The position numbers were made by a program, and so were the translations under genes. From a virus (lineage: Duplodnaviria > Heunggongvirae > Uroviricota > Caudoviricetes): a stretch of DNA of 5,093 bases. Location: IMG/VR virus record IMGVR_UViG_2541047905_000019, one strand, 5' to 3'. Below, one piece after another: positions 220 through 3,773 of this stretch. Position 1 is the stretch's first letter. Each line of letters begins with the position of its first letter. The notes under the pieces were generated by a model. The model did not search any database and had not been told where the DNA came from. It saw only the letters and a list, made by a program, of their open reading frames with translations.

Positions 220-680
220 ATATCGCGGTTTCCCTTTCAAATATCTGTCGCTTTGCAGGACATCTTTCACACTTCTACAGTGTCGCCCAGCATGCGGTGC
301 TTTGCAGCCAGCTGGTGCCGCAGGAATTTGCTTTTGAAGCGTTAATGCATGATGCAACAGAAGCGTATTGCCAGGATATTCCCGCTCCACTGAAACGCCT
401 TCTTCCTGACTATAAACGGATGGAAGAAAAAATAGACGCCGTAATCCGTGAGAAATACGGGTTACCCCCGGTTATGAGCACGCCTGTGAAATATGCCGAT
501 CTCATCATGCTGGCAACCGAACGCCGCGATCTCGGGCTTGATGATGGCTCTTTCTGGCCAGTACTGGAAGGTATCCCGGCAACAGAAATGTTCAAAGTTA
601 TTCCACTGGCTCCGAGCCATGCCTACGGGATGTTTATGGAACGTTTTAACGAGTTATCGGAGTTACGCAAATGCGCATGA
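220..680 (+). pseudogene. yfdR: HD-domain metal-dependent phosphohydrolase (YfdR-like 5'-nucleotidase family), 5'-truncated by the IS insertion
   Basis: Frame +3 is open from 165 through TGA at 678-680 with no ATG/GTG/TTG before the GTG at 297. Translation from 222 reads IAVSLSNICRFAGHLSHFYSVAQHAVLCSQLVPQEFAFEALMHDATEAYCQD..., carrying the H...HD metal-binding signature. The reading frame crosses the IS terminus, so the native N-terminus and start are missing. The yfdR name is from memory of the E. coli K-12 CPS-53 homologue and is unverified. Confidence 0.6.
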
Positions 681-1033
681 ATGTTTTCGAAATGGAAGGG
701 TTTCTTCGCGGGAAATGTGTACCACGAGATCTGAAAGTGAATGAAACAAATGCTGAGTACCTGGTACGTAAATTCGATGCGCTTGAAGCTAAATGTGCGG
801 CACTGGAAAACAAAATAATACCAGTGTCAGCTGAACTGCCGCCAGCAAATGAAAGTGTTCTGTTATTTGATGCTAACGGAGAAGGCTGGCTAATTGGCTG
901 GCGTTCTCTCTGGTACACCTGGGGACAAAAAGAAACCGGAGAATGGCTGTGGACATTTCAGGTCGGGGACCTTGAAAACGTCAATATCACTCACTGGGCA
1001 GTAATGCCGAAAGCACCGAAGAATAAAAAATGA
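671..1033 (+). CDS. DUF551-domain prophage protein (YfdS-like), 120 aa
   Basis: ORF 671..1033 with GGAG at 659-662, 8 nt upstream of ATG 671; a second ATG at 677 overlaps the upstream stop as ATGA. C-terminal region ELPPANESVLLFDANGEGWLIGW...NVNITHWAVMPKAP matches my recollection of the DUF551 pattern (LPxxxxxVLv...G...W....THWmPlP). Family name and YfdS resemblance are from memory. Confidence 0.7.
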   Translation: MRMNVFEMEGFLRGKCVPRDLKVNETNAEYLVRKFDALEAKCAALENKIIPVSAELPPANESVLLFDANGEGWLIGWRSLWYTWGQKETGEWLWTFQVGDLENVNITHWAVMPKAPKNKK

Positions 1034-1233
1034 GCGTGATAAAAACTCATACAGGAATTGTTATCACCCGAGACGGTCCGCAGGTAAAAAAACTGCACCA
1101 GACAAAGCGGATGTGGGTCGTCGGAAAAAACGAGTTTTACCACAAAGAAACCGGACGCCGCCACTTTGCAGAAAATACTCGCCGCCGACTGCTGATCGAT
1201 ACCATCAAGCCTATCGAGGTGAAGCATGTTTAA
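1030..1233 (+). CDS. Hypothetical small basic protein, 67 aa
   Basis: ATG at 1030 overlaps the upstream stop (ATGA at 1030-1033). The protein has 15 K/R against 6 D/E plus 5 His, which would suit nucleic-acid binding. Weak SD (GAAGA at 1018-1022). No family recognised. Confidence 0.5.
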   Translation: MSVIKTHTGIVITRDGPQVKKLHQTKRMWVVGKNEFYHKETGRRHFAENTRRRLLIDTIKPIEVKHV

Positions 1234-2273: not shown

Positions 2274-3035
2274 ATGACCACTATTACCAAAGAGCGACTG
2301 CTGACAATCAGGCAGTGGCGCGAAACATACGGACCTGGTAGCAACGTTGTACTGCCAGCAGAAGAAGCGGAAGAACTGGCACGAATTGCTCTGGCATCGC
2401 TGGAAGCAGAGCCGATAGGTTTCCGTTGCAGGCGCAATGATAACCTTGGTGATTGGAGTTACGTATATCATCGAGAGCCAGATGATTTTGAGCGCAAACA
2501 TTTAGTGATAGAGGGCATTTACGCCGCCCCTCCAGCACCGGTAGTGCCTGAAGAAGCAACTCCGGAAAACGTAGAAATGCTCTCTGGCTATGTTTCAACG
2601 TACAAATTAACCGATAGCGAGCGCGATATTGCTGCCGAAATATGGAACGCCTGCCGCGCCGCCATGCTTCAGTCCGGAAACTTTCGGGAAAACAAGAATT
2701 CGTCAACCAATAATTTTCGGGAAATCGCGGAAACGTCAACCAACTATCCGGCAATTCCTAGTGAGGTGTTGTCCGCAATCCTGAAGGTTGCCAGGATTCG
2801 TGCCGATTTCGATGATTTTGACGGTGACAGGCGAGGTATCGGTGATTGTCTGGATGAGGCTGAGCAAGAGCTTATCGTTACCATTAACAAATATGCCAGT
2901 CAGTTGGCAGCAGAACCTATAGCGCCTAATGACGTTCGAGAGCAGACAGCCATTCCACAAGTTCCGGTAACTCCGGATGGTTGGATAAGCTGTAGTGAGC
3001 GAATGCCGGACGACAGGCAGGAGGTGAATCAATGA
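2274..3035 (+). CDS. Modular acidic prophage protein, 253 aa, with a Pro-rich linker, an internal duplicated segment and a C-terminal fragment resembling the start of a DUF551 domain
   Basis: ATG at 2274 with AAGGA at 2263-2267. Contains the linker AAPPAPVVPEEATPE, the in-frame repeat NFRENKNSSTN/NFREIAETSTN, and ends ...PDGWISCSERMPDDRQEVNQ*. That ending resembles the start of the DUF551 region in the 671..1033 protein (VSAELPPANESVLL) but stops before the W...THW..P part. Confidence 0.65.
   Translation: MTTITKERLLTIRQWRETYGPGSNVVLPAEEAEELARIALASLEAEPIGFRCRRNDNLGDWSYVYHREPDDFERKHLVIEGIYAAPPAPVVPEEATPENVEMLSGYVSTYKLTDSERDIAAEIWNACRAAMLQSGNFRENKNSSTNNFREIAETSTNYPAIPSEVLSAILKVARIRADFDDFDGDRRGIGDCLDEAEQELIVTINKYASQLAAEPIAPNDVREQTAIPQVPVTPDGWISCSERMPDDRQEVNQ
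2679..2744 (+). repeat. Imperfect 33-bp direct tandem duplication (2 units) inside the 253-aa CDS
   Basis: Unit 1 (2679..2711) aactttcgggaaaacaagaattcgtcaaccaat versus unit 2 (2712..2744) aattttcgggaaatcgcggaaacgtcaaccaac: 25 of 33 positions identical, with TTTCGGGAAA and CGTCAACCAA blocks conserved at fixed 33-bp spacing. In frame, so it encodes an 11-aa repeat. Confidence 0.8.
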
Positions 3036-3115
3036 GCTGGCCTGATGCAATCGTAACTCTGGGGGTGGTCTTCGCAGCAGCGTTTGTTGTGTTCTCGATT
3101 TGTCGATGGGGATAA
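3032..3115 (+). CDS. Micro-protein, 27 aa, predicted single transmembrane helix (MSWPDAIVTLGVVFAAAFVVFSICRWG); not in the supplied ORF track
   Basis: ATG at 3032 overlaps the stop of the 253-aa gene (ATGA). Strong SD GGAGG at 3020-3024 with a 7-nt spacer. An 18-residue hydrophobic core is flanked by W/D at the N-side and R/W at the C-side. Stop TAA at 3113-3115. Confidence 0.5.
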   Translation: MSWPDAIVTLGVVFAAAFVVFSICRWG

Positions 3116-3119
3116 CCAC

Positions 3120-3362
3120 ATGTTCGCTTTGATTCAACGCGGTCAGATATACACGGACAGAGCTGGATACCCCGTGGTGATTACTCGCATCACTGAGCAC
3201 TCAGTGTTCTTTCGACGGATGGACGGACGATCCGGGCGGGTACGCATTGGTGAGTTAAACTGCCTGTTCGAACATATTGACCACCAGGAGTACCGCAAAA
3301 TTCTCGCGGACACTGAGCAGGAAAAGCACCTGAAAAAATTACGAGCCATGAAAAGGAAGTAA
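3120..3362 (+). CDS. Hypothetical small prophage protein, 80 aa (possibly DUF4222-like)
   Basis: ATG at 3120 preceded by GGGGA at 3108-3112. The track's 3084 start is TTG with no SD and overlaps the micro-ORF, so ATG 3120 is preferred. Sequence MFALIQRGQIYTDRAGYPVVITRITEHSVFFRRMDG... The DUF4222 label is a tentative recollection. Confidence 0.65.
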   Translation: MFALIQRGQIYTDRAGYPVVITRITEHSVFFRRMDGRSGRVRIGELNCLFEHIDHQEYRKILADTEQEKHLKKLRAMKRK

Positions 3363-3365
3363 ACA

Positions 3366-3500
3366 ATGAATAAAGCATTTGAACGATGGGTCCACCAGCG
3401 TTACGGCAATCGCTATGATCTGACGCGAGATGTTGACGGTTTCTACTGTCGTGAAGTTGTGAAGCGAATGTTTGAAGTGTGGTGCCACTGCCGTGGATGA
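3366..3500 (+). CDS. Micro-protein, 44 aa, Cys/His-containing (MNKAFERWVHQRYGNRYDLTRDVDGFYCREVVKRMFEVWCHCRG); not in the supplied ORF track
   Basis: ATG at 3366 lies 3 nt after the upstream TAA, with SD AGGAAG at 3354-3359 (6-nt spacer). Stop TGA at 3498-3500. Cys28, Cys40, His41 and Cys42 could form a small metal site. Sits immediately upstream of xis. Confidence 0.45.
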   Translation: MNKAFERWVHQRYGNRYDLTRDVDGFYCREVVKRMFEVWCHCRG

Positions 3501-3518
3501 AAGTTTTATGAGGTTGGC

Positions 3519-3773
3519 ATGCAGACAATCATCTATCAGATAACCCCCAGCAAATGGTGTACGGAGAGAGTCCTTATTGCATCAACAGGGCTAAAGCCTG
3601 GCACCATTGAGCGGGCAAGAAGAAAGTCATGGATGCAGGGAAAAGAATACCGCCATTACGCTGTAGAAGGTGATCCGGGGCACTACAGTGAATGCCTGTA
3701 CAACATCGAAGAAATTATGCGATGGATCGAAAACCAGAAACAACCAGGTGCCAAAAATGCAAGTTCCGGTTAA
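3519..3773 (+). CDS. xis: Excisionase-like protein (lambda Xis-type winged-helix recombination directionality factor), 84 aa
   Basis: ATG at 3519 with GAGG at 3510-3513. Position immediately upstream of int. The pattern ...SKW...GLKPGTIERARRK....GKEYRHY... parallels the lambda Xis pattern (...eW....sletvrrWv......G.reYlfh). Confidence 0.65.
   Translation: MQTIIYQITPSKWCTERVLIASTGLKPGTIERARRKSWMQGKEYRHYAVEGDPGHYSECLYNIEEIMRWIENQKQPGAKNASSG

Follow-up and report, generated by a model that had tools for sequence, protein, structure and literature searches.

The DNA considered here is a stretch of 5,093 nucleotides (nt) from IMG/VR virus record IMGVR_UViG_2541047905_000019 (the window), the left arm of an Escherichia coli lambdoid prophage in which every gene lies on the plus strand. 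Our subject is a 27-codon open reading frame (ORF), the micro-ORF, which is located in the exo-xis (ea) region, beside xis-int, and directly follows a gene of 253 amino acids (aa). An earlier reading of the letters, here called the sequence-only reading, had described a 27-aa frame preceded by GGAGG with a 7-nt spacer, its ATG overlapping the upstream stop, and our inspection agrees on each point. The ribosome-binding site (RBS) region (3017-3031) lies within the last five codons (QEVNQ) of the 253-aa gene, and the ATG of the following DUF4222 gene (3120) comes 4 nt past the micro-ORF stop, so that the micro-ORF exactly fills an 84-nt "intergenic" gap of RefSeq. In RefSeq record NZ_CP032204 (E. 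coli AR_0013), to which window positions 2900-3250 are 100% identical and in which the integrase adjoins mlrA, this 84-nt stretch is empty and has no coding sequence (CDS) for the micro-ORF. The claim of a single-transmembrane micro-protein gene, coupled to the gene before it and missed by annotation for its length, is supported by the conservation of the frame in homologous loci. We consider the case for a genuine gene at positions 3032-3115 to be strong, and the fuller reading, in which it belongs to an undescribed family of 27-residue single-pass inner-membrane peptides that would act early in phage development, to be probable (about 0.72).

AlphaFold2, given the single sequence plus four upstream in-frame residues that were added to reach the length minimum, predicts one uninterrupted helix from W3 to W26 (peptide residues 3-26; mean predicted local distance difference test score 87). 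The predicted helix is bracketed by Trp3 and Trp26 and contains a 19-residue uncharged core. The hydrophobic core announced by the sequence-only reading stands with its flanks, W3/P4/D5 and R25/W26, but its length needs correction from 18 residues to 19 (A6-C24). For this segment the Kyte-Doolittle mean is 2.63, and the Hessa 2005 insertion energy, a plain sum of scale values that takes no account of position, is -1.85 kcal/mol. None of the other ORFs that reach 20 aa in the window (84 with the micro-ORF) contains 19 consecutive residues with a summed energy below 0. As the sole charges are Asp/Glu5 and Arg25, the positive-inside rule would place the N-terminus in the periplasm and the C-terminus in the cytoplasm, a predicted N-out/C-in topology. 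A lipoprotein or a secreted signal peptide was rejected by inspection, since the N-terminus (MSWPD) carries no positive charge and Ile precedes Cys24.

Conservation of the micro-ORF

Homology searches with the peptide (tblastn) and with window 3010-3130 (sensitive blastn) covered 50,697 phage records and returned full-length relatives at 52-63% aa and ~72-77% nt identity. These relatives occur in 933W, VT2-Sakai, Stx2 I/II, Min27, ArgO145, WGPS2, TH18, the lytic Vequintavirinae phage Av-05 and others. At the inspected loci the relative is exactly 27 codons long, its ATGA overlaps the stop of whichever gene lies upstream, and it is unannotated. The conservation that the sequence-only reading had proposed to look for with tblastn is therefore present, in that the relatives keep frame, ATG, ATGA overlap and stop. 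The homologues found by BLAST are independent of a degenerate DNA pattern with which we also searched, composed of codons 1-6 and 24-26 with codons 7-23 left free. This pattern matched at least 120 IMG/VR viral contigs plus 8 stretches in GTDB species representatives, the latter from E. coli, Shigella flexneri, an Escherichia sp. and three small contigs (369-2,875 nt) of unrelated assemblies; two of these three contigs carry E. coli phage-like DNA. The sequence-only reading had staked its case on the frame being conserved in homologous loci, and 133 of the 135 listed pattern matches encode exactly 27 residues with the stop at codon 28. The other two are a chance match in a Planctomyces metagenome-assembled genome, with a stop at codon 7, and a copy (locus L121, 1815) that lost its stop and was extended to 40 aa (…ICRWGKVNQPERAGNLKR).

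Selection on the encoded peptide was assessed over codons 7-23, the part that the pattern leaves free. Variability at codon positions 1/2/3 is 0.087/0.058/0.182, the minimum numbers of changes are 20/16/32 (p = 0.047), and the Nei-Gojobori ratio of nonsynonymous to synonymous rates (dN/dS) is 0.36 in the ORF frame against 0.79 and 1.48 in the other two. Not a single indel separates the 54-55 distinct nucleotide versions of the micro-ORF. Between subtypes the proportion of synonymous differences (pS) reaches ~0.65-0.75, near saturation, at a nonsynonymous proportion (pN) of ~0.3, and the amino-acid replacements are nearly all within V, I, L, M, A and F. Five of seven deep lineages have kept the core hydrophobic, at a Kyte-Doolittle mean of 1.8 or more, an outcome that random substitution to the same divergence gave in 2-17% of trials per lineage. 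The most conserved peptide positions are G11 and, in the C-terminal half, A15, A17, L18, Y/F21, S22, I23, C24, R25 and W26. As judged from these substitution patterns, the micro-peptide sequence is shown to be under purifying selection. Scans of the viral collection for family members with a second codon not starting with A (that is, without ATGA), with Ser, Thr, Ala or Pro at position 24 (codon NCN), or with Lys at position 25 came back empty. Their absence points to a real constraint on Cys24, Arg25 and the overlap, beyond what the pattern itself imposes.

The gene is also common. Of 5,426 complete E. coli genomes, at least 989 contain a match to window 3017-3118 in sensitive blastn, with 1,318 copies in all and up to 4 per genome; 149 copies reside on plasmids, and the one inspected looks like a P1-type phage-plasmid. 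The micro-ORF was also seen in a 431-nt contig of Xanthomonas pisi and a 369-nt contig of Acinetobacter idrijaensis, in Stx-phage-like (Shiga toxin phage-like) sequence, for which contamination of the assemblies is the most likely origin. A record named 'Actinobacillus phage vB_Apl-pPE4' (PP818812.1; fetched locus 2501-2951; recorded host Actinobacillus pleuropneumoniae) contains an E. coli-type exo-xis segment, ~91% identical to 933W, with micro-ORF and hok, and its host attribution or origin may be doubtful enough to check.

Annotation has passed over most of these copies. The micro-ORF is unannotated in phages PhiR5_1, 933W, Stx2 II, ArgO145, Av-05 and TH18, and among the E. coli matches listed the RefSeq records have no separate CDS for it. 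In phage vB_EcoS-689R5 (ON470583.1, a partial genome; fetched locus 1496-1606) an out-of-frame 36-aa hypothetical protein is annotated in its place, owing to a 1-nt deletion right after ATGA that may be a sequencing error. The exact window peptide is absent from ~15 billion predicted proteins, where three sister subtypes appear as 'bacteriophage protein', 'prophage protein' or 'hypothetical protein'; their GenBank entries come from few submitters (e.g. AOM45384.1, EIL24003.1 and CAL6704654.1). At 90% clustering the peptides are grouped with DUF551 proteins of 121 and 185 aa, which do not contain the micro-peptide, so that the clustering offers no sign of a fusion ('Rosetta stone'). Pfam-A, NCBIfam, PHROGs v4, PADLOC and the PDB sequences gave zero above-threshold matches to the micro-peptide. 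A sub-threshold hydrophobic match to phrog_4612 (E ~0.01), not improved by the in-frame upstream extension, was set aside. The peptide strings do not occur in the searchable literature, and the micro-peptide is absent from the supplementary texts searched of the Sakai ribosome profiling (Ribo-seq) small-gene paper and of the Enterobacteriaceae microproteome preprint. The exo-xis literature searched mentions no membrane micro-protein. The K-12 prophages Rac and CPS-53 (yfdR-yfdS(DUF551)-yfdT) do not carry the gene, making published K-12 Ribo-seq data unusable for the micro-ORF.

A mobile unit in varied surroundings

By blastn, the DNA shared at this locus with 933W-type and other phages spans only positions 3017-3115, from the Shine-Dalgarno (SD) motif to the stop codon; the left edge is query position 8 of 3010-3130, i.e. 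window 3017. Of 134 copies, 124 have GGAGG 7-9 nt upstream of the start and 133 have a 4-mer SD core; in 119 the ATGA closes an upstream frame that has been open for 40 codons or more. The proposal that the micro-ORF is translationally coupled to the 253-aa gene gains from these counts, together with the retention of ATGA in relatives, and coupling appears likely on these grounds. The genes upstream form a highly mosaic set of Ea22/EaA-like proteins, in which C-terminal modules of at least four unrelated types precede the micro-ORF, and the DNA downstream is equally varied in its contents (Table 1). Since the downstream DNA varies, the micro-peptide would serve no one particular neighbour, and it is the SD-to-stop unit that recombination preserves. 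Such comparisons of junctions show that the micro-ORF travels behind several unrelated genes as a self-contained unit of ~99 nt (SD, ATG, 27 codons and stop).

The window's own upstream gene is one of these mosaics. Its Pfam DUF551 match is restricted to profile positions 1-16 of 68, and alignment to full-length relatives indicates that ~165 nt of DUF551 were deleted in frame. The deletion joint lies at ~3012-3017, its right edge just before the SD motif of the micro-ORF, and the same truncated junction is found in 122 complete E. coli genomes and in 16 fetched loci. Further upstream, a second and complete DUF551 gene (window 671-1033; YfdS-like, 120 aa) likewise ends in an ATGA overlap. The ORF that follows it (window 1030-1233) encodes 67 aa and looks soluble, unlike a membrane micro-ORF, which shows that a DUF551 gene need not be followed by the cassette.

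In 933W (locus 1501-1950) the micro-ORF lies ~153 nt upstream of mokW/hokW/sokW, an arrangement seen in ~40% of the fetched loci. The cassette is also present in the lytic rV5-like phage Av-05 (Vequintavirinae; fetched locus 2501-2584) and on ~100-kb phage-plasmids that encode a DNA polymerase III theta homologue (plasmid pCTX_B2_4, ~3516-3600), and it is thus not restricted to lambdoid prophages. By homology, the carriers of the family are the exo-xis (ea) region of E. coli and Shigella lambdoid phages, P1-like phage-plasmids and at least one lytic Vequintavirinae phage.

The gene order of the window is the end of an IS3-family transposase gene, a truncated yfdR-like gene, genes of Ea22/EaA/DUF551 type, DUF4222, a 44-aa ORF, excisionase (DUF1233) and integrase (IntR-type). 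Positions 1-177 hold the 3' end of the transposase gene (IS1203-like), and positions 297-680 a yfdR-like 5'-deoxynucleotidase gene without its N-terminal part (Pfam YfbR-like, profile positions 53-99 only); an insertion sequence (IS) appears to have truncated this prophage gene. The 44-aa ORF has a Cys/His-rich C-terminus and no Pfam or PADLOC match.

Table 1. Features at the micro-ORF, and the types of sequence found on either side of it among its relatives
Feature	Positions	Strand	Remarks
253-aa mosaic Ea22/EaA-type gene	2274..3035	+	RefSeq 'hypothetical protein'
RBS region of micro-ORF	3017..3031	+	GGAGG 3020-3024; 7-nt spacer 3025-3031
Micro-protein gene (predicted)	3032..3115	+	ATG 3032-3034, TAA 3113-3115; 27 codons; peptide MSWPDAIVTLGVVFAAAFVVFSICRWG
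ATGA start/stop overlap	3032..3035	+	termination-reinitiation type; upstream TGA 3033-3035
DUF4222 gene	3120..3362	+	Pfam DUF4222 E = 8e-14; RefSeq annotation
44-aa ORF MNKAFERWVHQRYGNRYDLTRDVDGFYCREVVKRMFEVWCHCRG	3366-3500	+	between DUF4222 and excisionase; RefSeq hypothetical
Upstream C-terminal module 1			complete DUF551, ending ...THWMPLPEPPQEVNQ at the stop
Upstream C-terminal module 2			DUF551 with internal deletion, ending ...ERMPDDRQEVNQ at the stop (window's own gene)
Upstream C-terminal module 3			ending ...RNGLISVEDILR at the stop
Upstream C-terminal module 4			coiled coil, ending ...NDLKNIEQEVNR at the stop, as in 933W L0139
Downstream context 1			DUF4222 at +4 nt
Downstream context 2			mok/hok/sok module at ~+153 nt (933W type)
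Downstream context 3			other small genes
Downstream context 4			terminator-like hairpin, then convergent toxin-antitoxin pair (ArgO145 type)

Proposed function and rival explanations

In lambda and Stx phages, transcription from pL reaches the exo-xis region in the first minutes after infection or induction (PMC10834534). The micro-ORF would accordingly be transcribed together with the neighbouring early-left (pL) genes at either event. Ribosomes ending the upstream gene could then reinitiate at the overlapping ATGA, assisted by the strong GGAGG, and the 27-mer would enter the inner membrane N-out/C-in, with acidic residue 5 outside and Arg25 inside. Once inserted, it would act in the inner membrane during early phage development. 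How it might act is a more tentative matter. The mode that we favour, at somewhat less than even odds, is that the peptide modulates a larger inner-membrane protein, of either host or phage origin, by binding to it, in analogy with AcrZ, MgrB, MgtS and KdpF, whose helix is likewise uncharged and whose ends are short; pore formation is less likely. A bolder reading, which we hold to be unlikely, makes the peptide the first known member of a family of exo-xis transmembrane micro-proteins aimed at a specific host inner-membrane complex, such as the FtsH/HflKC protease system or a transporter or receptor of competing phages, through which it would influence lysis-lysogeny, Stx induction or superinfection. 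If this were true, some phenotypes now ascribed to ea22 constructs in Stx phages, or to their exo-xis region, would stem from the micro-ORF.

At the RNA level, promoter- or terminator-like sites adjoining the micro-ORF do not exceed shuffled controls. The minus strand has no promoter-like site near 3032-3200, the closest being at 2739 and upstream of it, and such sites are not more numerous than in shuffles; on the plus strand, too, none adjoins the micro-ORF. Around the start, the RNA folds less stably than shuffled controls (z = +1.49), Rfam yields zero families in the window at E <= 1, and the micro-ORF region has no inverted repeats. An RNA element was rejected on the grounds of missing stable structure, inverted repeats and Rfam match. 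A regulatory leader peptide or upstream ORF was rejected as well, since the micro-peptide is conserved in sequence and the genes and spacing downstream vary widely. A -1 frameshift at the upstream stop, which would lead directly into the micro-ORF, fared no better, because inspection gave no slippery heptamer (AAUCAAU) and the micro-ORF has a strong SD of its own. On the minus strand, a similarity ('LGLFSICRW') near sok in hok-type loci was put down to chance: stops precede it, there is no ORF and there is no nucleotide inverted repeat.

Several points weigh against our interpretation. Both translation and coupling are what we infer from sequence, and the binding of a larger membrane protein is argued by analogy. 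Each coding test is modest when taken alone, the codon-position bias having p ~0.05, and staying stop-free has a probability of ~0.6-0.74 per lineage, a weak test on which we do not rely. In the large sample, the pattern itself accounts for part of the invariance seen at residues 1, 3-6 and 24-26. At the sensitivity used, the family is confined to Escherichia and Shigella phages. Some members have marginal insertion energies (+1 to +1.6 kcal/mol, and one +5.6). No helical periodicity is apparent in the conserved positions (moment 0.12, permutation p = 0.55), and hence no evidence for a single binding face; a conserved helical face of GxxxA type was dropped for the same reason.

The sequence-only reading had placed type I toxins among the candidates. 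A membrane-damaging peptide, type I toxin- or holin-like, is the main rival to our reading; once the early operon was turned on, it would make the inner membrane leaky or collapse its potential and might serve in host arrest or as an abortive or exclusion device. The size and hydrophobicity of the micro-peptide recall Ibs, ShoB, DinQ and TisB-class peptides, toxicity would be tolerated because the operon is repressed in the lysogen, and the gene lies close to hok/mok/sok (~153 nt upstream) in ~40% of loci and beside toxin-antitoxin pairs elsewhere. Nonetheless, we consider such a toxin unlikely. The adjacency to hok is not constant, and the micro-ORF is situated outside the lysis cassette. The RNA checks above leave it without an antisense promoter-like site near the ORF, an Rfam antitoxin RNA across the window, a promoter of its own or a structured leader; its RBS lies inside the upstream gene, in a region less structured than shuffles. 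Moreover, the helix lacks charged residues and amphipathic character, and no polar, charged tail follows it at the C-terminus. The type I toxin suggestion is the part of the sequence-only reading that we do not retain; its other candidate, a phage membrane peptide that would modulate a host membrane protein, is still the best guess.

Alternatively, the peptide itself could be functionless, with the ORF, or the DNA or RNA beneath it, retained for neighbouring genes to relay translation, to keep them spaced or to act in RNA form or in recombination. The tight ATGA coupling upstream, the 4-nt gap to DUF4222 in the window, the position at mosaic joints and the only moderate significance of each coding-selection test all fit such a role. 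However, there is no constant gene downstream for it to serve, the partners being DUF4222 (+4 nt), hok (+153 nt), a terminator-like hairpin or others. Amino-acid sequence, fixed length and hydrophobicity are conserved while synonymous sites are near saturation, and neither stable RNA structure, inverted repeats nor an Rfam match was detected, which makes this explanation quite improbable. Finally, the micro-ORF could be a chance, untranslated ORF within a conserved intergenic spacer, given that short hydrophobic ORFs arise easily and that the literature searched contains no expression data. We find this scarcely credible: the strong SD, ATG and stop are conserved over ~30% nt divergence and many contexts, dN/dS is below 1 in the micro-ORF frame and lower there than in the other two, the block of homology ends exactly at the SD and the stop codon, and some GenBank submitters have independently called sister subtypes proteins.

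A genuine gene for a membrane micro-peptide would have consequences for work on these phages. It is carried by about one in five complete E. coli genomes and by the reference Stx phages 933W and VT2-Sakai, in an exo-xis region that modulates lysogeny and Stx-prophage induction and has been linked to the lysis-lysogeny decision. Constructs spanning the 3' end of ea22- or DUF551-type genes could unknowingly include or destroy the micro-ORF. A change of its ATG to ATA kills the start and turns the upstream TGA into TAA, leaving the upstream protein unchanged. The micro-ORF is, in addition, an example of a conserved gene cassette that length cutoffs hide systematically, and in practice it would provide annotation pipelines with a family model and studies of phage-host membrane interactions with a candidate.

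Relation to known systems

The micro-ORF is the same kind of object as the computationally catalogued Entero67K micro-ORF clusters (PMC11188072), which are hydrophobic intergenic ORFs of 15-70 codons from Enterobacteriaceae under purifying selection. Among those co-directed with the upstream gene, ~13% are reported to start within 10 nt of its stop (PMC11188072). The window peptide itself does not occur in the supplementary text searched of that paper, and it bears no assigned name or function.

With type I toxins (Hok/Gef, TisB, Ibs, ShoB and DinQ) the micro-peptide shares being a small, hydrophobic, predicted membrane peptide that is frequent in prophages and sometimes stands beside hok/sok. 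Unlike them, the micro-ORF has no antisense RNA, no promoter of its own and no structured leader occluding the RBS; it appears to be translationally coupled within an operon, and there are no charges in or after the helix. A holin or antiholin was rejected because of the exo-xis location beside xis-int, the mere 3 residues that follow the helix and the lack of a PHROG holin match.

HK97 gp15, T4 Imm and P22 SieA are phage accessory membrane proteins that act on host membrane functions. Like these superinfection-exclusion proteins, the micro-ORF is found in a mosaic phage accessory region. However, the micro-peptide is much shorter, at 27 aa and one helix, it has no PHROG or PADLOC homology, and we found no promoter that would express it in a lysogen.

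Small single-pass inner-membrane proteins of bacteria, with regulatory or accessory roles, are often missed by annotation, and some are encoded inside operons. AcrZ, MgrB, MgtS, PmrR, KdpF and CydX are all shorter than 50 aa and have one transmembrane helix, uncharged along its length, whose aromatic or charged residues are confined to the two ends. The micro-peptide, below 50 aa and with a single predicted transmembrane helix, resembles this class in form but has no sequence relationship to it. The KdpF model (TIGR02115) was considered and rejected: its sole match, to one sister subtype, scores 14.7 bits where the cutoff is 26.85, and the window peptide does not match it. By its predicted features, then, the micro-protein is of a known category, the phage-encoded small single-pass membrane protein, with a sequence that is in no described family. 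What sets it apart from the bacterial class is that its gene is borne by phages rather than by the chromosome, and that its neighbours vary from one locus to the next.

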